From: a virus
IMG/VR virus record: IMGVR_UViG_3300045988_017120
Location: 1 to 6,033 of that record
Direction: 5' to 3' (one strand)
DNA length: 6,033 bases
Position numbers and translations under genes: made by a program. This document shows positions 1 through 6,033 of this stretch, piece after piece. Position 1 is the stretch's first letter, and each line of letters begins with the position of its first letter. The notes under the pieces are model-generated. The model was not told the origin of the DNA. It did not search any database and saw only the letters and a list, made by a program, of their open reading frames with translations.

Positions 1-55
1 AGTTCTACTGAGAATACGTCTATGCTTACTTCTGTTCCCAATGTTTCTCAACAGA
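1..55. repeat. Left copy of an exact 55-nt terminal direct repeat. It is an overlap produced by linearising a circular genome.
   Basis: agttctactgagaatacgtctatgcttacttctgttcccaatgtttctcaacaga at 1-55 is identical base for base to 5979-6033. The capsid reading frame is continuous across the junction. Confidence 0.97.
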
Positions 56-1431
56 CTCTCAGTGTGTTTCTTCAGACGGCTAACGCTGGAGACAAGCCTA
101 ATACTCGTGATGATGCTGGACTGCCTATTGTTTATGGTTCTTGTAAGTTGCTTGATATGCTTGGTTACGGTTCTATGATTGCGTCTACCAATACTGGTAA
201 GGCTGCTATTACTAAAAAATATCTAGGTGTTGATAATCTTGGTGATGCTGATAATCCTCTGGTTTATGCTTCTTCTCAGATTGTCAATGCTCTTCCGTTC
301 CTTGCTTATCAGAAAATCTATTATGATTTCTTTAGCAATACTCAATGGGAAAAACATTTAGCTTATGCTTATAATGTTGACTATTGGTCTGGCTCTGGCC
401 AAATCTCATTAGTTACGGATATGGTTAAGCTTCGTTATGCTAACTATCCTAAGGATTATTTTATGGGAATGCTTCCTAATTCTCAGTACGGTTCTGTAGC
501 TGTTTTACCGGCTAGATATGGTACTGGTTCTTATTCTTCGAGCGATTTAATTGCGTTTAATGCCTCTGGAAATCAAGGTGTGTTTAATTTACCTGCGGGT
601 AAGACTTCCCCGATTACTGGTGCTCTTGATACTACTCGCGCTGTTGCTCTTAACTCTGATCTTTCCGCCCTCTCAATCCGTGCGACTGAGTATCTTCAGC
701 GCTGGAAAGAAGTAGTCCAATTCTCTAGCAAAGATTATTCTGACCAGATGGCCGCTCAATTCGGTATCAAAGCTCCCGAATACATGGGTAATCATGCACA
801 TTATATTGGAGGCTGGTCTAGTGTTGTTAATATTAATGAAGTAGTTAATACTAATCTTGATACTGATTCTTCTCAAGCCTCTATTGCTGGTAAAGGTGTT
901 TCTAGTAATTCTGGACATACTATTACTTATGATTGTGGTGCTGAACATCAAGTGATTATGTGTGTTTATCATGCTGTACCTATGTTAGATTGGAATTTGA
1001 CAGGCCAAGCTCCTCAATTGACTGTGACTGCTATAACTGATTTCCCGCAACCTGCTTTTGACCAGCTTGGTATGCAGGCCGTTCCTGCCCTTAATCTTCA
1101 GAACAATCCCGGACGTGATGTTTCCGGTTCTCTTGGTTATAATCTTCGTTACTGGCAATGGAAATCTAATATTGATACCGTCCATGCTGGATTCCGTGCT
1201 GGTGCTGCTTATCAGTCTTGGTCTGCTCCTCTTGACGGTTGGCAAGTGTTGACTTCCGCTGGTGCTTGGTCTTATCAGTCTATGAAGGTTCGTCCTCAAC
1301 AGTTGAACTCTATATTTGTTCCTCAAGTTGATGCTACTAATTGCTCTGTTGCATTTGACCAGTTGCTTTGTAATGTTAATTTCCAAGTATATGCAGTTCA
1401 GAACTTGGATAGAAATGGTTTACCTTATTAA
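1..1431 (+). CDS. VP1: Major capsid protein, 3' part. This is a continuation of 5673-5978. The ATG at 22 is an internal Met, not the start.
   Basis: The frame is open from base 1 (agt tct act gag = SSTE, the same residues that end the 5673 ORF). Stop is TAA at 1429-1431. The size, strong T-ending codon bias and aromatic/Gly/Asn-rich jelly-roll-like composition are typical of microvirus capsid proteins. Confidence 0.93.
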   Translation, partial: SSTENTSMLTSVPNVSQQTLSVFLQTANAGDKPNTRDDAGLPIVYGSCKLLDMLGYGSMIASTNTGKAAITKKYLGVDNLGDADNPLVYASSQIVNALPFLAYQKIYYDFFSNTQWEKHLAYAYNVDYWSGSGQISLVTDMVKLRYANYPKDYFMGMLPNSQYGSVAVLPARYGTGSYSSSDLIAFNASGNQGVFNLPAGKTSPITGALDTTRAVALNSDLSALSIRATEYLQRWKEVVQFSSKDYSDQMAAQFGIKAPEYMGNHAHYIGGWSSVVNINEVVNTNLDTDSSQASIAGKGVSSNSGHTITYDCGAEHQVIMCVYHAVPMLDWNLTGQAPQLTVTAITDFPQPAFDQLGMQAVPALNLQNNPGRDVSGSLGYNLRYWQWKSNIDTVHAGFRAGAAYQSWSAPLDGWQVLTSAGAWSYQSMKVRPQQLNSIFVPQVDATNCSVAFDQLLCNVNFQVYAVQNLDRNGLPY

Positions 1432-1443
1432 TTTTGTGCTGTT

Positions 1444-1887
1444 ATGAGAAGTTTTGCTTATAAAAATCCCGATTATATTAAAAATGAGGTTGTTCCTGAA
1501 TTGATTGAAGATAATCCGTGTTATCAACAATCTGTATATGATACAGTTATGTATGATGAGACTCCCGATGGTGATTTGATTCAAGCTGATATGACGCAGA
1601 TTTTATTGAATCAAGAAAAATATCGTCGTTTGCTTGGTGATATGAATGTTCAGAACATTCTTGCCCAAATGCATCCTACTCAGTCTACTGTTATGGACGG
1701 TATGACTGATGAGGAGCGCTTTAATTGTGTTATTTCCCGGCATTGCCAGACTATGTCTGAAAGACAAGCTGTTTTACAGCAATTGTCTAGTGAGAAGTCA
1801 GAATTAACTAAGTATGCCGAGACTATGTTGGCAGAGCAACAGTCAGCGCCCGATGAGTCGTCCGCCCCTGACGCTACTGCTCAATGA
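1444..1887 (+). CDS. 147-aa acidic hypothetical protein. It may be an internal scaffolding (VP3-like) protein.
   Basis: The ORF has the same T-ending codon bias as its neighbours. It starts 12 nt after the capsid stop, and its stop overlaps the next start (ATGA at 1884-1887). The Asp/Glu/Gln-rich composition and ~150-aa size, sitting beside the capsid gene, resemble gokushovirus VP3. I recognise no specific motif, so the function is only a guess. Confidence 0.6.
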   Translation: MRSFAYKNPDYIKNEVVPELIEDNPCYQQSVYDTVMYDETPDGDLIQADMTQILLNQEKYRRLLGDMNVQNILAQMHPTQSTVMDGMTDEERFNCVISRHCQTMSERQAVLQQLSSEKSELTKYAETMLAEQQSAPDESSAPDATAQ

Positions 1888-2999
1888 GGTTCTATGATAT
1901 TGGAGAAAGTCCCTTAATGGGACACTCCGAAAAGCATATTGCTCCGCTTGTTCTTGGTGGTATCATTGCCGCCGGTGCTTCTCTTGCTGGCAATGTTATT
2001 GGCTCTTCTTCGCAAAATAAGGCTAATCAGACCAATATTGATATTAATCGCGAGAATAATGCGTTTAATGCTGAGCAGGCACAGATTCAGCGTGATTGGC
2101 AAGAGAAAATGTGGGGAATGAGTAATTCTTACAATTCCCCCAATGCAATGATTTCTCGCGGTCTTAATCCATTTGTCCAAGGCTCTGCTGCTATGGCTGG
2201 CTCTAAGTCTCCTGCTTCAGGTGGCGCCGCTGCTTCTGCTGCTCCTCCTCCTAGCGTTCAGGCTTTTCGCCCCGACTTTTCTGACGTTGGTACTGCATTG
2301 GCTTCTATGGCTCAAGCTCGTGCGTCAATGATTAATGCTGAACAGAACGCTGCTCTTACGCCGTATAAGATTGAACAGATTCGTGGCGCTACTGATTATC
2401 GTAATATCGGTGTCGGTGAATCAGGTTACTGGAATAAATCTACTGGTAGAGAATCCGCATTATTGGACCAATCCAAAGAGTATCAGGAACTTAAAAATAT
2501 GGAATTTGCCGGTCGCCTTACTCAGGCACAAGAAGCACAGATCCTTTTGGATTCAGAAGCTCAACAGGTATTGAATAAGTACCTCGACGAGCAACAACAG
2601 GCTGATTTGTTTATTAAAGGCCAAACTTTAGCTAATTTGTATGCCCAAGGTTCTCTTACTGAGGCTCAATATAAAGCTGAGATGGCTAAAGCTGTTAAAT
2701 TGTCTGTTGAGACTAATGGTCTTAAGATTCAGAACAGGATAGCTGAAGAAACCGCTGATTCTCTTATATATGCGAATATTCAGGCCAACCGTGCCCAAGG
2801 TTTGTCTTCACTATGGGATTCGAAGAATACGAATGTTCTTAAGAATATGGAATATTCTAAAGAAAAAGCTGTTCGTGACTATTATAAGTGGAGTGCTAAG
2901 CACAAACAGAAAGATGTTAATTCTTATGAGCTGCGTAACGCCCTTGAATATAGTACCCGTGTTTTCCAAGGTGTTGGTAATAGTATAGGTCGTATATGA
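1884..2999 (+). CDS. VP2: Minor capsid / DNA pilot protein (VP2, H-like).
   Basis: It has an N-terminal hydrophobic Gly/Ala segment (IAPLVLGGIIAAGASLAGNVIGS). This is followed by ...AEQAQIQRDWQEKMWGMSNSYNSPNAMISRGLNPFV, which resembles the conserved ...Q..M...T..QR...D...AGLNP motif of gokushovirus-type VP2 as I recall it. Next come an Ala/Ser/Pro-rich linker and a long Gln/Ala/Glu/Lys-rich stretch that is probably coiled coil. The start is ATGA-coupled to the upstream ORF. Confidence 0.8.
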   Translation: MRFYDIGESPLMGHSEKHIAPLVLGGIIAAGASLAGNVIGSSSQNKANQTNIDINRENNAFNAEQAQIQRDWQEKMWGMSNSYNSPNAMISRGLNPFVQGSAAMAGSKSPASGGAAASAAPPPSVQAFRPDFSDVGTALASMAQARASMINAEQNAALTPYKIEQIRGATDYRNIGVGESGYWNKSTGRESALLDQSKEYQELKNMEFAGRLTQAQEAQILLDSEAQQVLNKYLDEQQQADLFIKGQTLANLYAQGSLTEAQYKAEMAKAVKLSVETNGLKIQNRIAEETADSLIYANIQANRAQGLSSLWDSKNTNVLKNMEYSKEKAVRDYYKWSAKHKQKDVNSYELRNALEYSTRVFQGVGNSIGRI

Positions 3000-3076
3000 C
3001 ATACTTCAGGACTAGAAGCCTATCGCGGCGTTTGAGCGATATACACCCGCCGCCCGCGGAGGGCCTGGTCGAAAAA

Positions 3077-3122
3077 CGGAGCGGAGCGACTTCCTTAGAG
3101 AAGCGTTCCGCTTCGGTATTTT
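3077..3122 (+). terminator. Candidate intrinsic terminator closing the structural-gene transcript.
   Basis: The hairpin has 16 pairs. Segment 3077-3088 (cggagcggagcg) pairs with 3104-3115 (cgttccgcttcg), including two G-T wobbles. A3089 is bulged. Segment 3090-3093 (cttc) pairs with 3100-3103 (gaag), leaving the 6-nt loop cttaga. The tail is g-tatttt (four T at 3119-3122). The U-tract is short, so the call is tentative. The same hairpin could instead act in ssDNA. Confidence 0.4.
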
Positions 3123-3213
3123 AGCACGTAGGTGCGCAAAGGCAAGACAGTTCCTGCCTTGCCGTGTCTATACACCTCTGTATACATCTACTTGTTAATT
3201 AAGCGGAGCCCCT

Positions 3214-3282
3214 AGTTGTGTACGAAGTAAAATCGAGTTATCCTCTCGATTTCTCCTTTCTCTCGTCCATAAACGCACAACT
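3214..3282 (+). other. Nested stem-loop domain.
   Basis: The inner stem is a perfect 8 bp: aaatcgag (3230-3237) pairs with ctcgattt (3245-3252), with loop ttatcct. The outer stem pairs agttgtg (3214-3220) plus cg (3223-3224) with cg (3274-3275) plus cacaact (3276-3282), with a 2-nt ta bulge. Confidence 0.45.
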
Positions 3283-3319
3283 CACACTCTATTGTAGAAT
3301 CTAAAAAAAACGTTTTTCT

Positions 3320-3350
3320 TTTGGTTTAATAAAAATAGTTTGTATATTTG
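3320..3350 (+). promoter_or_regulatory. Bacteroidota-type sigma-A promoter (-33 TTTG, -7 TAnnTTTG).
   Basis: TTTG lies at 3320-3323 and TATATTTG at 3343-3350, separated by 19 nt. This fits the published Bacteroides -33/-7 consensus and its 19-21 nt spacing as I recall them. The site sits in the very AT-rich part of the only long intergenic region, about 50 nt upstream of the first ATG (3401). Confidence 0.5.
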
Positions 3351-3400
3351 CTCCCAGTTAGAAGTTACAACTGTTATTAACATTTTAAAATTTTACAATT

Positions 3401-3595
3401 ATGCAGAAATTTATTATTTCAGTTAAAGAAAAAACTACTGGCCGTGATGTTATTTCGCCTTATGTCGTTAATTCTCTCGATGGTCTTGGAAACTATTCTG
3501 AGCGAGTTTCTTCGTTGGGTCTTCTTGTTATTGTGGATTCAATTAAGGAAGAAAATGATTTTGTTGAACTTAAAACTCAAGCTGATGAAAAGTAA
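3401..3595 (+). CDS. 64-aa hypothetical protein, the first gene after the promoter.
   Basis: The ORF shows the genome-typical T-ending codon bias (ttt att att tca gtt ... ggt ctt ctt gtt att). It follows the promoter directly. I recognise no motif. Confidence 0.6.
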   Translation: MQKFIISVKEKTTGRDVISPYVVNSLDGLGNYSERVSSLGLLVIVDSIKEENDFVELKTQADEK

Positions 3596-3668
3596 TAATA
3601 TTTGGAAAATTGTGATTGGAGCTGTTTCTGCCGCTTTAGGTTATATTCTTAATGCTATTGGTTTATGA
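3585..3668 (+). CDS. 27-aa single-pass transmembrane peptide (MKSNNIWKIVIGAVSAALGYILNAIGL). It may be a holin-like or membrane-targeting lysis partner.
   Basis: The ATG at 3585 overlaps the end of the 64-aa ORF. The stop TGA (3666-3668) overlaps the peptidase start in an ATGA. This is the only open frame covering the otherwise unexplained 3596-3664 gap, and that stretch has T-ending codon bias. The peptide has a polar, charged N-terminus followed by about 19 hydrophobic residues. The start is uncertain because the frame is open back to 3444. Confidence 0.45.
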   Translation: MKSNNIWKIVIGAVSAALGYILNAIGL

Positions 3669-3973
3669 ATGATGTTCTTATGGAGTTTCTTGGTTATCTG
3701 TTATATTCTAACTTGCATTTTTCTATAACAAGTGCCAAGCGTTCTATTGCTGAAAATGAGGCTGCTGGTGGTGTTCCAAATTCTCAGCATTTGTTTGGAG
3801 AGGCTATTGATATGAAGCCTTATGGTTCTACTTCTTATAATCGGTTGCTTGAGCATATCCATAGTTATTCGGATCATTTTCATGTATTCGATCAATTGAT
3901 ATTATATCCTACATTTATTCATGTTTCATTTGGTAATCGTAATCGTCGCCAAGTGATTGACAAGCGTAAATAA
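3665..3973 (+). CDS. Zn-dependent peptidoglycan peptidase, M15 family (Peptidase_M15_3 / YcbK-like). This is the putative endolysin.
   Basis: ITSAKRSIAENEAAGGVPNSQHLFGEAID matches the family core S.yR....N...gG...S.H..G.A.D, with His42 and Asp49 as predicted Zn ligands. LILYPTFIHVSF matches the C-terminal ..Y....vHvD block, with His86 as the third ligand. There is no signal peptide and no wall-binding domain. The call rests on remembered motifs, not on an HMM run. Confidence 0.78.
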   Translation: MNDVLMEFLGYLLYSNLHFSITSAKRSIAENEAAGGVPNSQHLFGEAIDMKPYGSTSYNRLLEHIHSYSDHFHVFDQLILYPTFIHVSFGNRNRRQVIDKRK

Positions 3974-3975
3974 TT

Positions 3976-5655
3976 ATGAAATTTTCTCCTGATTTACTGA
4001 AAGCGACTGATCATTGTCAGCATCGTTCGTTTATTACTAATCGTTACACTGGTGCCCGTATTGCTGTAGATTGTGGTCAATGCGATTATTGTATCCATAA
4101 GCGTGCTAAAAAAGCGTCTATGCGTGTGAAGACCGCTGGAAGTGCTTTTAAGTATTCTTATTTTGTAACTCTTACGTATGATAACGAGCATATTCCTCTT
4201 ATGAACTGTAAGGTTCTCCATAGTGAATATGAGGACGTCGTAGGTATTTCAGGAGATATTCATTTTGGTGATGAATACCATTCTTATATCCCCGTTTCTG
4301 AGTATCAATGTGATGATAACTCCATGTTGCATCATATATTCTTCGAGCAGGTTCAAGGCACTGTGCCGTATGACCGTGAAATTAAGGAATATGTACCTGT
4401 TAGGGATAATTGGTTTCTTAGTATGGATGCTATTCGTAGTTTTATCCATAAAACGCAAGCCGTTGACAAGACGGACTATCCCGCTTCTACGCAGTACGGT
4501 CGTGATAATCTTATTCCCTTTCTGAATTATGTTGATGTTCAGAATTATATTAAACGTTTACGTAAACATTTATTTCAACAATTAGGAACATATGAAACGT
4601 TACACTTCTACGCTGTGGGTGAGTACGGACCCGTACATTTCCGCCCGCATTATCATCTCTTATTATTCACAAACTCGGAGAAGGTCTCTGAGGTTTTACG
4701 ATACTGTCACGATAAGAGTTGGAAACTCGGTCGTTCAGATTTCCAACGTGCCGCTGGGGGCGCTGCTTCGTACGTTGCGAGTTACGTTAACAGCCTTAGC
4801 GCTGCTCCCCTCTTATATCGTTCATGCCGCGCGTTTAGACCCAAGTCGCGAGCATCTGTCGGATTCTTTGAAAAAGGTTGTGATTTCGTGGAAGACGAAG
4901 ACCCTTATGCGCAAATTGAGAAAAAAATCGATTCTGTCGTTAACGGACGAGTCTATAACTTCAATGGTGTCAGTGTTCGGTCAACTCCACCCATGTCGTA
5001 TATCCGTACCTTATTACCCCGATTCTCGTCTGCTCGCAATGACGATAGTGTTGCGATTGCTCGAATTCTTCTCGCTGTACACCGAACGCCGCAAAGAATT
5101 GCAAGATTCGGATTTGTTGACTACAAACAGGACTCAATCTTAAGTCTTGTTCGTTCTTATTATCAATATCTTAAAGTCAATTCTATTCTTACTGATGATG
5201 ACAAGATTATATTACATGCTTCTCGGTGTCTTACTAGGTTCTGTAACAGTTCTAGCGATGTCGATATTGAATCTTATATTAATAAGTTATATCGGTTGTT
5301 CTTATATGTCTATAAATTCTTCCGTAACTGGTATTTGCCTCTCTTCGGTTCTGATGTTAGTGCTTACTCCGGTCGTATTATGTTTATCATTAAAACAGGT
5401 ATAGAGTATGAAAAGGAAAAAGATTATGAAAGTCTACGAAATGCATTCAGCCTACGCTCCGTTAACCCGGACATATCGGATTGTATGTTTGCGTTGCCTG
5501 CGTACGGACAGGAGAGTGATGTCTTGCAGGCCGTATCAGGTGAAACGGTTCAGCTTCTTGAACAACTCCGGTTTCGTAGTTCGACATTCTGTCGTGATAT
5601 GATTAAGCATAAGAAGCTTAATGATGCTAATAATATATTTAATCGTATGGTTTAA
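3976..5655 (+). CDS. VP4: Rolling-circle replication initiation protein (HUH endonuclease; phiX174 A / gokushovirus VP4 homologue).
   Basis: Four elements support the call. An N-terminal Cys cluster CGQCDYC lies at 4072-4092. Motif I FVTLTYD lies at 4162-4182 (aa 63-69). The HUH motif HYHLLLF lies at 4648-4668 (aa 225-231), preceded by EYGPVHFRP. The twin-tyrosine motif YVASYVNS has Y266 at 4771-4773 and Y270 at 4783-4785, as in the phiX174 A active site. Confidence 0.95.
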   Translation: MKFSPDLLKATDHCQHRSFITNRYTGARIAVDCGQCDYCIHKRAKKASMRVKTAGSAFKYSYFVTLTYDNEHIPLMNCKVLHSEYEDVVGISGDIHFGDEYHSYIPVSEYQCDDNSMLHHIFFEQVQGTVPYDREIKEYVPVRDNWFLSMDAIRSFIHKTQAVDKTDYPASTQYGRDNLIPFLNYVDVQNYIKRLRKHLFQQLGTYETLHFYAVGEYGPVHFRPHYHLLLFTNSEKVSEVLRYCHDKSWKLGRSDFQRAAGGAASYVASYVNSLSAAPLLYRSCRAFRPKSRASVGFFEKGCDFVEDEDPYAQIEKKIDSVVNGRVYNFNGVSVRSTPPMSYIRTLLPRFSSARNDDSVAIARILLAVHRTPQRIARFGFVDYKQDSILSLVRSYYQYLKVNSILTDDDKIILHASRCLTRFCNSSSDVDIESYINKLYRLFLYVYKFFRNWYLPLFGSDVSAYSGRIMFIIKTGIEYEKEKDYESLRNAFSLRSVNPDISDCMFALPAYGQESDVLQAVSGETVQLLEQLRFRSSTFCRDMIKHKKLNDANNIFNRMV

Positions 5656-5672
5656 TTTTAATTTTATTGATT

Positions 5673-6033
5673 ATGAGTGATTTTAGTCCTTTAGACCGGG
5701 CGAAAATTTCTGTCCATCGGTCTTCTTTCGACTTAAGTTCGAAAAAATTGTTTACCGCCAAAGTTGGTGAGATTCTTCCGTGTTATTGGCAGATTGCTAT
5801 TCCCGATACTAAGTATCGTATCTCTTCGGATTGGTTTACCCGTACCGTTCCGGTTAATACGGCTGCTTATACCCGTATCAAGGAATATTATGATTTCTAC
5901 GCTGTGCCGTTACGCCTGATTTCTCGCGCTCTTCCGCAAGCATTTACCCAGATGATGGATTACATGACTAGCGCGTCTAGTTCTACTGAGAATACGTCTA
6001 TGCTTACTTCTGTTCCCAATGTTTCTCAACAGA
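5673..6033 (+). CDS. VP1: Major capsid protein, 5' part. It continues at position 1 after the overlap is removed. The joined gene is 5673-5978 plus 1-1431, which is 1,737 nt and 578 aa.
   Basis: The ATG at 5673 lies 17 nt after the Rep stop. The frame is open to the window end and is missing from the ORF track only because it has no stop. Translation is MSDFSPLDRAKISVHRSSFDLSSKKLFTAKVGEILPCYWQIAIPDTKYRISSDWFTRTVPVNTAAYTRIKEYYDFYAVPLRLISRALPQAF... The FDLS...G.L.P...R..P...Y.FYAVP.R pattern is the conserved N-terminal signature of Microviridae F/VP1 capsid proteins, as I recall it. Position 6033 is codon position 1, matching position 55 in the frame of ORF 22-1431. Confidence 0.93.
   Translation, partial: MSDFSPLDRAKISVHRSSFDLSSKKLFTAKVGEILPCYWQIAIPDTKYRISSDWFTRTVPVNTAAYTRIKEYYDFYAVPLRLISRALPQAFTQMMDYMTSASSSTENTSMLTSVPNVSQQ
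5979..6033. repeat. Right copy of the 55-nt terminal direct repeat (circular-genome overlap).
   Basis: Identical to 1-55. The 5,978-nt offset gives the unit genome length. Confidence 0.97.

Follow-up and report, generated by a model that had tools for sequence, protein, structure and literature searches.

The human gut holds few DNA viruses as abundant as the microviruses. Each of them has to begin by converting its injected single-stranded DNA (ssDNA) into a duplex, a step understood only for the E. coli phages phiX174 and G4. The annotated complementary-strand origin of G4 (NC_001420; primer 3970-3997, origin 3998) fills the 136-nt gap between genes F and G, has a GC content of 0.59-0.61 and folds into three hairpins (z -4.69); its viral strand carries GCGAAAGC at 3977, 13 nt before the primer-start CTG (GTCCCTACTG). 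In phiX174 the F-G spacer, which is the primosome hairpin site, holds GCGAAGC at 2358. Single-strand origins (sso) are orientation-specific ssDNA signals for second-strand synthesis (PMC4595007). In the literature we searched, intergenic hairpins are put forward as candidate origins only in generic terms and for other clades of microviruses (PMC9865509), and there is no description of any complementary-strand origin of a Bacteroidota microvirus or of the element reported here. This element is a conserved, folded, non-coding segment of about 300 nt in a 6,033-nt stretch of viral DNA (IMG/VR record IMGVR_UViG_3300045988_017120, positions 1 to 6,033; hereafter the window), located between the pilot protein gene VP2 and a small open reading frame (ORF), ORF64. 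With a probability of roughly one half, we read it as a complementary-strand origin made of folded + strand ssDNA, with an embedded transcription terminator, in a phage of a Bacteroidota host. The conservation of the element, its + strand-specific structure, its motif content and its genomic context are directly supported by the data below.

The element is confirmed to be real, under selection, non-coding and folded, well beyond chance. An earlier note on this DNA had drawn attention to a GC-rich island within about 400 non-coding nt after VP2. The gap does measure 401 nt, from the VP2 stop at 2999 to the next start at 3401, and GC reaches 0.59 over 3000-3149 against 0.33-0.46 in the flanking coding DNA and 0.21 over 3300-3399. 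A blastn search with 2990-3400 against 50,697 phage records found the region in 36 of them, which are Microviridae: genomes sampled from dog faeces and from a human, and many 'Dulem viruses' of lemurs. Some have nearly no nucleotide similarity to the window outside this region. An IMG/VR scan with an invariant block, followed by an nhmmer profile search, recovered the full ~296-nt element from ~105 contigs of ~6 kb, and a metagenome scan added 99 further copies, mostly from human gut. Among 99 genomes the element is the best-conserved part of the genome, with a mean identity of 0.877 versus 0.52-0.84 for the genes (VP1 0.73, VP2 0.52, VP4 0.81) and a maximum in the 100-nt bin 3001-3100 (0.91). 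We find no sign of protein coding in it: no frame is consistently open, the longest open frame varies between genomes, substitutions lack a 3-nt periodicity (variability by phase 0.10, 0.12 and 0.085), and among 221 deletion runs relative to the window the length modulo 3 is 1 in 205, 2 in 13 and 0 in 3. A 42-amino-acid ORF at 2996-3124 and a 108-amino-acid coding sequence annotated across the element in Dulem virus 242 were rejected as genes, as neither has a coding signal. Folded as DNA, 3000-3300 reaches -50.7 kcal/mol against -36.2 ± 4.0 kcal/mol for dinucleotide shuffles (z -3.62; none of 100 shuffles as good); folded as RNA, it has a z of -4.29 against such shuffles.

The fold is also visible in covariation. 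We aligned 96 element copies that are mutually less than 96% identical (alignment A2) and also drew on a larger set of 191 unique copies. In A2 an explicit model of 51 pairs in 12 helices has 97.4% of its cells paired, against 23-46% in controls whose pairing partners were slid by 1-3 columns. Double changes occur at 18 pairs and in 252 cells, compared with 3-10 pairs and 4-54 cells in the slid controls, and the observed covariation was reached by 0 of 500 shuffles. Covariation supports about 11 helices and, seen in sets of 96 to 191 copies from related microvirus genomes, makes the element a clade-wide feature. Its parts are listed below in window coordinates (element position p is window position 3001+p), together with the promoter that flanks it.

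~3004 to ~3295, + strand: the whole conserved structured non-coding element, supported by profile matches, conservation, covariation and the lack of a coding signal
3022-3026 with 3036-3040, + strand: hairpin P2 (ATCGC / GCGAT, 9-nt loop), paired in 100% of cells
3048-3064, + strand: interleaved helices P3 (3048-3050 with 3056-3058) and PK (3052-3055 with 3061-3064)
3077-3115, + strand: long hairpin LH (12 + 4 bp), probable intrinsic terminator stem, 95.7% paired
3081-3087, + strand: mini-hairpin M1, GCGGAGC (GNA triloop closed by C-G)
3100-3105 with 3109-3114, + strand: hairpin P5 (GAAGCG TTC CGCTTC), an alternative to the top of LH, supported by covariation
3115-3125, + strand: GGTAnTTTAGC, the T-tract after LH/P5 and an unpaired conserved block, invariant in alignments A1 and A2 and with a terminator-tail score
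3124-3127 with 3132-3135, + strand: hairpin P6 (GCAC GTAG GTGC), with the loop C-GGA-G in 22 of 96 copies
3136-3167, + strand: hairpin P7, including the ggcaag/cttgcc stem, with compensatory changes at two pairs
3172-3196, + strand: variable linker between the 5' and 3' domains, an insertion/deletion hot spot that is deleted in some genomes
3203-3209, + strand: mini-hairpin M2, GCGGAGC
3214-3282, + strand: core of the 3' domain, in which P8 encloses M3, P9 and a pyrimidine-rich single strand ending in invariant GTCCATAAACG
3214-3221 with 3275-3282, + strand: long-range stem P8, 100% paired, with three covarying pairs and one invariant T.G
3222-3228, + strand: mini-hairpin M3, ACGAAGT in the window
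3230-3237 with 3245-3252, + strand: hairpin P9 (AAATCGAG TTATCCT CTCGATTT), with covariation and a conserved loop (GAGTTATC)
3279-3287, + strand: AACTCACAC, the 3' end of P8 and unpaired CACAC, invariant in 96 of 96 copies
3320-3350, + strand: sigma-ABfr promoter of Bacteroidota type (TTTG-N19-TAtaTTTG), flanking the element and not part of it

Three of the four stem-loops that the earlier note had drawn are conserved in the covariation, namely the 16-pair hairpin at 3077-3115, the pairing of ggcaag 3141-3146 with cttgcc 3158-3163, and the nested domain 3214-3282 with its 8-bp inner stem (P9). The remaining one, placed at 3025-3030 with 3048-3053 or at 3024-3028 with 3054-3058, is present in the window but is not a conserved pairing, and the covariation favours P2, P3 and PK in its stead. 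In P2 the pair 3025:3037 is G-C 77 times, A-U 12 times and C-G 5 times. In the 191 copies, element pair 47:57 is C-G (173), G-C (11) or T-A (7), PK pair 52:62 takes three Watson-Crick types (C-G 178, G-C 9, A-T 2), and a second PK pair, 54:60, is compensated as well (C-G 189, T-A 2). Since PK interleaves with P3, the two may form a compact H-type pseudoknot or two mutually exclusive hairpins, that is, a two-state switch. Other pairings were rejected: P1 (3018-3021 with 3061-3064, from RNAalifold) is mismatched in exactly those sequences in which position 62 has changed, so that PK is better supported; an outer stem of the single-sequence fold (3010-3015 with 3065-3070) has A.C mismatches in about half of the A2 copies; and the long-range pairing of the M1 and M2 regions suggested by RNAalifold (3078-3087 with 3203-3212) involves invariant bases only.

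The central hairpin appears to be bistable. LH covaries (pair 83:107 is G-C 170, A-T 5, T-A 1), carries about 2.3 G.T wobbles per sequence, and competes with M1 and P5. The P5 pair 100:112 is strictly G-C (104) or A-T (75); its partners in LH are the invariant T91 and G78, which can pair, by wobble if need be, with either state. The strictness of 100:112 together with the wobble-capable invariant T91 and G78 suggests that both the LH and the P5 fold are under selection. Further downstream, P6 pair 125:132 is A-T in 74 and G-C in 22 copies with zero intermediates, and the apical part of P7 occurs in two sequence variants, each of which is still paired. The core of the 3' domain is a three-way junction closed by P8, and within it P9 has compensatory changes at 6 of its 8 pairs and zero G.T pairs. 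The linker between the two domains holds an extra hairpin (CCTAGATCTATT AGTA ATGGATCTAGG) in about 20 genomes. This part of A2 (columns ~175-345) also varies in L002, L013, L057, L066, L081, L118 and others; L081 has three tandem repeats of ~23 nt (CTTACAyTTTGTCAAGTCCAGGA), and L014, L096 and L362 have a ~130-nt insert in common.

The second line of evidence is motif content. 'Mini-hairpin DNA' (a GNA or GNNA loop closed by C-G; Hirao and colleagues) is of exceptional stability when made of DNA and far less stable when made of RNA, the Tm of r(GCGAAAGC) being 39 C; reports place it at the complementary-strand origins of G4, St-1 and alpha3, which depend on primase, and also in RSF1010 ssiA (CCGAAGG) and in the promoters of the N4 virion RNA polymerase (vRNAP; GCGGAGC) (PMC13037366). 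Three + strand heptamers of the form xCG(R)AGx' are present in 96 of 96 copies of the element, and their variation is limited to the N position or to compensating outer pairs. The earlier note had placed CGGAG at 3057, 3077, 3082 and 3204, correctly, and the occurrences at 3082 and 3204 are the cores of the conserved GCGGAGC motifs M1 and M2. M1 is GCGGAGC in 83 and GCGAAGC in 13 of the 96 copies, varying only at N; M2 is GCGAAGC in 88, GCGGAGC in 7 and a compensated ACGAAGT in one, and is directly followed by invariant CCCTAGTT (3210-3217). In M3, which occurs as GCGAAGC, CCGAAGG, ACGAAGT and CCGGAGG with the loops GAA, GGA, GTA or GNAA, the outer pair covaries (G-C 109, C-G 67, A-T 14). In the window the count is 3 motifs, where 0.24 are expected (P = 0.0018). 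Across 84 genomes, the element contains 261 such motifs on the + strand and 7 on the - strand, at a density 18.6 times that of the rest of the + strand. Loops of 3 nt close four to five of the element's hairpins; there are three to four GNA triloops and one pyrimidine triloop, no UNCG loop and few GNRA loops.

The fold, too, is specific to one strand. For the two domains, DNA folding on the + strand gives z values of -3.5 and -3.0, against -2.6 and -2.1 on the - strand. G.T pairs on the + strand are common in some helices, and an invariant T.G closes P8; together with the better fold of the + strand, they exclude a symmetric cruciform and a function on the - strand. We tested the predicted strand bias of the motif in nine unrelated microviruses (L378-L386) that have the same gene order, VP1 proteins 25-37% identical to that of the window, and no place among the blastn matches listed for the element. 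In their non-coding DNA the + strand carries the motif, xCGN(N)AGx', 31 times and the - strand 8 times (5.0 versus 1.3 per kb; one-sided binomial P about 1.5e-4), whereas coding DNA has 1.2 and 1.4 per kb. Strand-specific enrichment of mini-hairpins may be a general marker of complementary-strand origins in microviruses. Peromfec virus RodF7_5 has eight mini-hairpin motifs within one 877-nt gap.

The third line of evidence is the position of the element between a terminator-like hairpin and a promoter. The consensus of the sigma-ABfr promoter (PMC7366714) has a single full match in the genome of the window, at 3320-3350 (0.23 expected), and both TTTG blocks of this match are invariant among relatives; no second sigma-ABfr-like motif pair was found in the genome. 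The lone promoter indicates a host among the Bacteroidota and transcription as one long unit, whose transcript would run round the circle and must end within the gap 3000-3400. Two places in the element have terminator-like scores in pattern prediction, LH/P5 with GGTATTTT behind it (5 T in 8 bases) and P9 with the T-rich stretch that comes next. The 16-bp hairpin and its tail (3077-3122) probably double as an intrinsic transcription terminator, and the ~2.3 G.T per sequence of LH are more in keeping with the stem of an RNA terminator than with a DNA hairpin. In five variant genomes (L052, L083, L113, L284 and L306) the 5' domain is swapped for a perfect 9-17-bp hairpin with a T-run, after which the 3' domain follows unchanged; a canonical hairpin with T7 there takes the place of LH. 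A further genome, L028, keeps LH alone of the 5' domain, followed by TATTTTTT. The 3' domain is the sole module retained in all variant genomes. With a terminator-like hairpin upstream and the only promoter downstream, it lies, together with P6-P7 in the case of the window, in a spacer between terminator and promoter, which makes a role at the level of DNA more natural. The genomes without the 5' domain, L028 included, also share a conserved TTCCGAAAGTA(TCG) block directly after the terminator T-run, which in L052, L083, L113, L284 and L306 stands ~20 nt before the 3' domain; the block has a GAAA loop with one closing pair only. The CCGAAAG of variant genomes was considered as a mini-hairpin and, having a single closing pair, was not counted.

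Because virion DNA and mRNA share one sense, strand specificity by itself does not distinguish a DNA from an RNA. In eight helices (P2, P3, PK, M1, M2, M3, P6 and P9) only 3 of ~5,730 cells are G.T, although 10 of the pairs change from one Watson-Crick type to another. An RNA helix that changes in this way usually shows G.U intermediates, which are nearly neutral. The near-absence of G.T in these helices, the DNA-like loops and the genomic context make us lean towards DNA. The earlier note had suggested a structured ssDNA complementary-strand origin; the structure is established, and the origin is the best-supported reading of it, strengthened by the covariation, the + strand structure, three mini-hairpins with GNA triloops, the scarcity of G.T pairs in most helices, the position after a terminator in variant genomes and the occurrence of the motif in unrelated microviruses and in the origin spacers of phiX174 and G4, with priming as the part that we infer.

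If this reading is correct, the circular ssDNA genome would enter a Bacteroidota cell and be coated by the single-stranded DNA-binding protein (SSB) of the host. The GC-rich stretch would then fold into SSB-resistant structures, namely M1-M3, P2, P5, P6, P7 and P9, the P3/PK knot and the three-way junction closed by P8. This fold and the invariant unpaired blocks (GATATACAC, GGTAnTTTAGC, CGCAAAGG, CCCCTAGTT, GTCCATAAACG and CACAC) would be recognised by a priming enzyme of the host, for which DnaG primase, as in phage G4, a PriA-type primosome and RNA polymerase are candidates; the 6-kb phage encodes neither a polymerase nor a primase. The enzyme would lay down an RNA primer, plausibly in the invariant CCCCTAGTTG immediately 3' of M2, from which a host polymerase would synthesise the rest of the complementary strand, yielding the replicative form. 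In this scheme the 3' domain (3196-3290) would be the indispensable core and the 5' domain an exchangeable accessory module. In its RNA form, 3077-3122 would be a wobble-rich 16-bp hairpin followed by UAUUUU, at which the transcript begun at 3320-3350 would end. Exclusion of SSB, the identity of the enzyme, the site of the primer and termination are thus the steps that we infer.

Several considerations weigh against this proposal. Every function ascribed to the element is deduced from comparison, and since the virion strand has mRNA sense, all structural arguments fit an RNA as well; interleaved helices, a long-range stem and long invariant unpaired blocks are also expected of a functional RNA. 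G.T pairs are tolerated in P7, P8 and LH. The stems of M1 and M2 are invariant, so that covariation neither supports nor refutes them, apart from the one compensated M2 variant. With its ~300 nt, the element is also twice as long as the G4 origin. Its conservation is somewhat inflated, as genomes were recruited through motifs inside it, and the terminators are pattern predictions, whose leakage would mean that the 3' domain is transcribed. Base composition gives no independent map of the origin: in 84 relatives rotated to the element, the frequency of T at four-fold sites is 0.44-0.55 in ORF64, the peptidase gene and VP4 versus 0.63-0.72 in VP1, ORF147 and VP2, and because T changes stepwise not only at the element but also between VP4 and VP1 (0.44 to 0.64), mapping by a strand-exposure mutation gradient is confounded by gene-specific codon usage. 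The step at VP4/VP1 is probably due to expression-linked codon usage of the structural genes.

The strongest alternative, to be taken seriously though doubtful in our view, is a structured RNA. It could be the folded 3' untranslated part in which the long viral transcript ends, or else a processed non-coding RNA with an effect on the host. As a 3' end it would protect the transcript from exonucleases or process transcripts of multi-genome length, possibly as a new ribozyme. The mRNA sense of the folded strand, the RNA z value, the rich covariation, the interleaved helices with their possible H-type pseudoknot, the three-way junction and the long invariant unpaired blocks all suit such an RNA, as do the G.U-type wobbles of LH and the GNAA (GNRA-like) tetraloops of some M3 variants. 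Moreover, the element begins 5 nt past the VP2 stop, and therefore at least its 5' part must be transcribed. However, G.U intermediates are nearly missing from eight covarying helices, and the dominant loops, GNA and pyrimidine triloops, are exceptional in DNA and weak in RNA (PMC13037366). The variant genomes place the 3' domain after a strong terminator-like hairpin and T-run without a promoter before it. In unrelated microviruses non-coding DNA is likewise rich in the + strand motif, which also occurs in two ssDNA origins defined by experiment. At gathering thresholds neither the window nor any of five relatives matches an Rfam family, and even at E up to 10 the hits are at chance level (mir-383, E 0.078, 20 bits versus 70 needed; the ylbH leader, E 0.16, 18 bits versus 50 needed), as we also take ARRPOF and a snoRNA to be, whose scores are far under gathering; ARAGORN predicts no tRNA or tmRNA gene. 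A related and likewise doubtful idea is that the same ~300 nt serve twice, with an RNA fold (the 16-bp terminator hairpin, perhaps with a pseudoknotted 3' end) and a distinct ssDNA fold (M1, P5 and the 3' domain); the coupled pair 100:112 and the invariant T91 and G78 would then be the evolutionary footprint of the double constraint. In the most radical version, the pseudoknot and three-way junction would belong to a new class of structured RNA or to a self-cleaving ribozyme that processes rolling transcripts of gut microviruses.

It is rather unlikely that the 3' domain is mainly the viral-strand (+) origin and the 5' domain a separate single-strand origin. On this account VP4, the replication protein (Rep), would nick and re-ligate the DNA at the P9 loop (GAG-TTATCCT-CTC) or at the invariant AACTCACAC, on the model of HUH Rep proteins acting at the hairpin loops of CRESS-DNA viruses and rolling-circle plasmids. 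The domain could also contain the Rep nick site in addition to another role, a reading that its retention in all variants and the P9 loop would fit. The retention of the 3' domain alone when the 5' module is swapped would be expected if that domain is matched to the phage's own Rep and single-strand origins can be exchanged like cassettes; P9 combines the strongest stem covariation with a conserved loop and no G.T; and the promoter of the Rep operon follows shortly after the domain. The + origin of this phage is also left unplaced by our searches, as nothing like that of phiX174 was found elsewhere in the genome: the best match to its 30-nt viral-strand origin (CAACTTGATATTAATAAC...) has 17 of 30 positions, against a shuffle mean of 17.35. 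On the other hand, phiX174-like + origins are not hairpins and lie inside the Rep gene (annotated at 4306 in NC_001422), the invariant + strand T.G of P8 is A.C on the other strand, so that the fold is no symmetric cruciform, and the 3' domain holds two of the three mini-hairpins, which are typical of priming sites; this Rep family also has no known nick-site consensus that could be matched.

Punctuation of transcription alone, with a terminator for VP4-VP1-VP2 and upstream elements of the next promoter, is improbable. LH/P5 with GGTATTTT and P9 with its T-rich run both resemble terminators, a plain terminator hairpin replaces the 5' domain in the variant genomes, and the single promoter follows at 3320-3350. 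However, ~40 nt suffice for a terminator, which would not account for 300 nt, about 11 covarying helices and blocks of invariant unpaired bases; the 3' domain persists beyond a perfectly good terminator; and the element is the most conserved sequence of the genome, unlike terminators, which drift freely.

The idea, also raised in the earlier note, of an attachment site, as a mimic of the host dif for integration by XerC/D as in CTX-phi or as a host-derived segment, can be set aside as very improbable: although Krupovic and Forterre locate the dif-like att sites that bound the microvirus proviruses of Bacteroidales in the region equivalent to this VP2-Rep gap (PMC3091885) and the linker 3172-3196 is an insertion/deletion hot spot, the non-coding region has no match to the 28-bp dif consensus, the best ones (20-21 of 28) lying in coding DNA, and no integrated copy was found among the 120 closest Rep homologues, the contigs with exact ORF64 and 120 metagenome matches to the 3' domain, which are all about one genome long or concatemers. 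No contig longer than about two genome lengths carries a copy of the element. A scan of bacterial genomes with a 17-mer of the element gave at least 120 loci where ~140 chance matches are expected, and by profile search the element is absent from 120 of 120 of them, which weakly suggests its absence from host chromosomes. The locus L140 (uncultured Bacteroidetes chromosome, 3295-5021), with four exact copies of the 17-mer 570 bp apart, was judged a chance match; these copies sit on the other strand of a gene for a tandemly repeated protein resembling extracellular domains and are unrelated to the element.

As for the genome around the element, the ends of the window are identical (1-55 = 5979-6033, a 55-nt terminal repeat), which indicates a circular microvirus genome of ~5978 nt assembled with a 55-nt overlap. 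All genes lie on the + strand; identities are from Pfam matches.

5673 to 1431, + strand, spanning the junction of the window: VP1, capsid protein
1444-1887, + strand: ORF147
1884-2999, + strand: VP2, pilot protein
3401-3595, + strand: ORF64
3665-3973, + strand: peptidase with a Pfam match to Peptidase_M15_3
3976-5655, + strand: VP4, Rep

The genes are closely packed, with 3000-3400 as the sole large gap. The short junctions claimed before are accurate, with gaps of 12 nt between VP1 and ORF147, 2 nt between ORF102 and VP4 and 17 nt between VP4 and VP1, and an overlap of 4 nt between ORF147 and VP2. A human-gut metagenome scaffold, L254, carries the same proteins as the window. An invariant A-run (3303-3310) stands just upstream of the promoter, and between the promoter and the start codon of ORF64 there is an invariant T.TTATTAA with an A/T-rich leader (3372-3400), which may serve to initiate translation; a speculative alternative is an AT-rich spacer of an origin, as in phiX174. 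A short hydrophobic frame at ~3555-3668 (in the frame of ORF 3444-3668, ending ...IVIGAVSAALGYILNAIGL*) joins ORF64 to the peptidase gene and overlaps both; in the relative L253 a gene of 37 amino acids is called at this place, and the product may be a small membrane or lysis peptide. Two kinds of database entry call for care. A Rep 89% identical to that of the window (P0099) is deposited as Corynebacterium striatum from a 6035-nt contig, which is almost certainly a microvirus contig inside that assembly and not the source of a Corynebacterium gene. Four public contigs, L256 (13,625 nt), L030, L280 and L316, are head-to-tail concatemers of 1.2-2.3 genome copies; these assembly or rolling-circle artefacts could pass for larger genomes or prophages.

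For a clade that infects Bacteroidota, whose primary sigma factor is a different one, the element provides a sharply delimited candidate signal with predictions at the level of single base pairs (stems, triloops and invariant single strands), and it might find use in ssDNA vectors or synthetic microviruses for Bacteroides. The strand bias of mini-hairpins suggests a cheap heuristic for locating complementary-strand origins, and for recognising the packaged strand, in metagenomic ssDNA viruses. If the element instead works as RNA, the outcome would be more novel still, a new class of structured RNA from a very abundant group of viruses.

Among described systems, the reekeekee- and roodoodoo-microviruses, known from metagenomes, have conserved intergenic hairpins with compensatory substitutions that have been proposed as complementary-strand origins (PMC9865509); they belong to unrelated clades, and their hairpins are simple, 13-64 nt long and one or two in number, whereas the element has several domains over ~300 nt and formal covariation from many more sequences. 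The primosome assembly site of phiX174 (n'/PriA) is likewise an intergenic viral-strand hairpin at which complementary-strand synthesis starts (PMC9865509), but it consists of one ~55-nt hairpin that PriA recognises, along with PriB/C and DnaT, and the element is far larger. The host machinery of the two would also differ in that, to our knowledge, most of the E. coli primosome is missing from Bacteroidota. The N4 vRNAP promoters and RSF1010 ssiA use the heptamers GCGGAGC and CCGAAGG, respectively, as ssDNA hairpin landmarks for a polymerase or primase (PMC13037366). The same heptamers occur in the element as M1 and M2 and as the commonest M3 variant after GCGAAGC; N4 and RSF1010 encode the enzyme themselves (N4 vRNAP, RepB' primase), unlike this phage.

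The sso elements (ssoA, ssoT, ssoU and ssoW) of rolling-circle plasmids and integrative and conjugative elements, and the minus origin of M13/f1, are likewise highly structured, orientation-specific, non-coding ssDNA signals, of 150-300 nt. Like the element, sso are fold-dependent, conserved between diverged replicons, exchanged as cassettes and situated near the Rep operon (PMC4595007). There is no sequence similarity between them and the element. The ssoA type and the M13 minus origin, which depend on RNA polymerase, are recognised by CS-6 (TAGCGT/A) in a terminal loop together with RSB, or by a promoter mimic with -35 and -10 borne on a hairpin. Neither a CS-6 (TAGCGT) loop nor a promoter-mimic hairpin is recognisable in the element, the nearest sequences to TAGCGT/A being TAGCAC and TAGCGC in the stem of P6. 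The sso and M13 origins use RNA polymerase with sigma-70 or sigma-A, and Bacteroidota promoters differ.

A close parallel is the origin of G4 (also of St-1, alpha3 and phiK). No homology to the G4, St-1 or alpha3 origin was detected, as the blastn matches of substantial coverage all come from the gut-microvirus clade and G4-like phages do not appear among the matches listed. Nevertheless, both are GC-rich islands in an intergenic gap downstream of a gene of the capsid module in a compact microvirus, and both form several viral-strand hairpins beyond shuffles (z -4.7 in G4, -3.6 in the element). Both carry a viral-strand GCGN(N)AGC mini-hairpin and a C-rich ...CCCTA.T.G after the stem that bears it, and the invariant GCCCCTAGTTG after M2 resembles the G4 sequence GTCCCTACTG; priming by DnaG at the element would be an analogy drawn from these likenesses. 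The element differs in its length (~300 versus 136 nt), in having three mini-hairpins where G4 has one, in its interleaved helices, bistable hairpin, long-range three-way junction and exchangeable modules, and in its host, Bacteroidota rather than E. coli, with a priming role that is putative. Most likely, then, although not homologous to them, the element resembles the G4 origin and the plasmid sso in the way it works, in a larger and more elaborate form.

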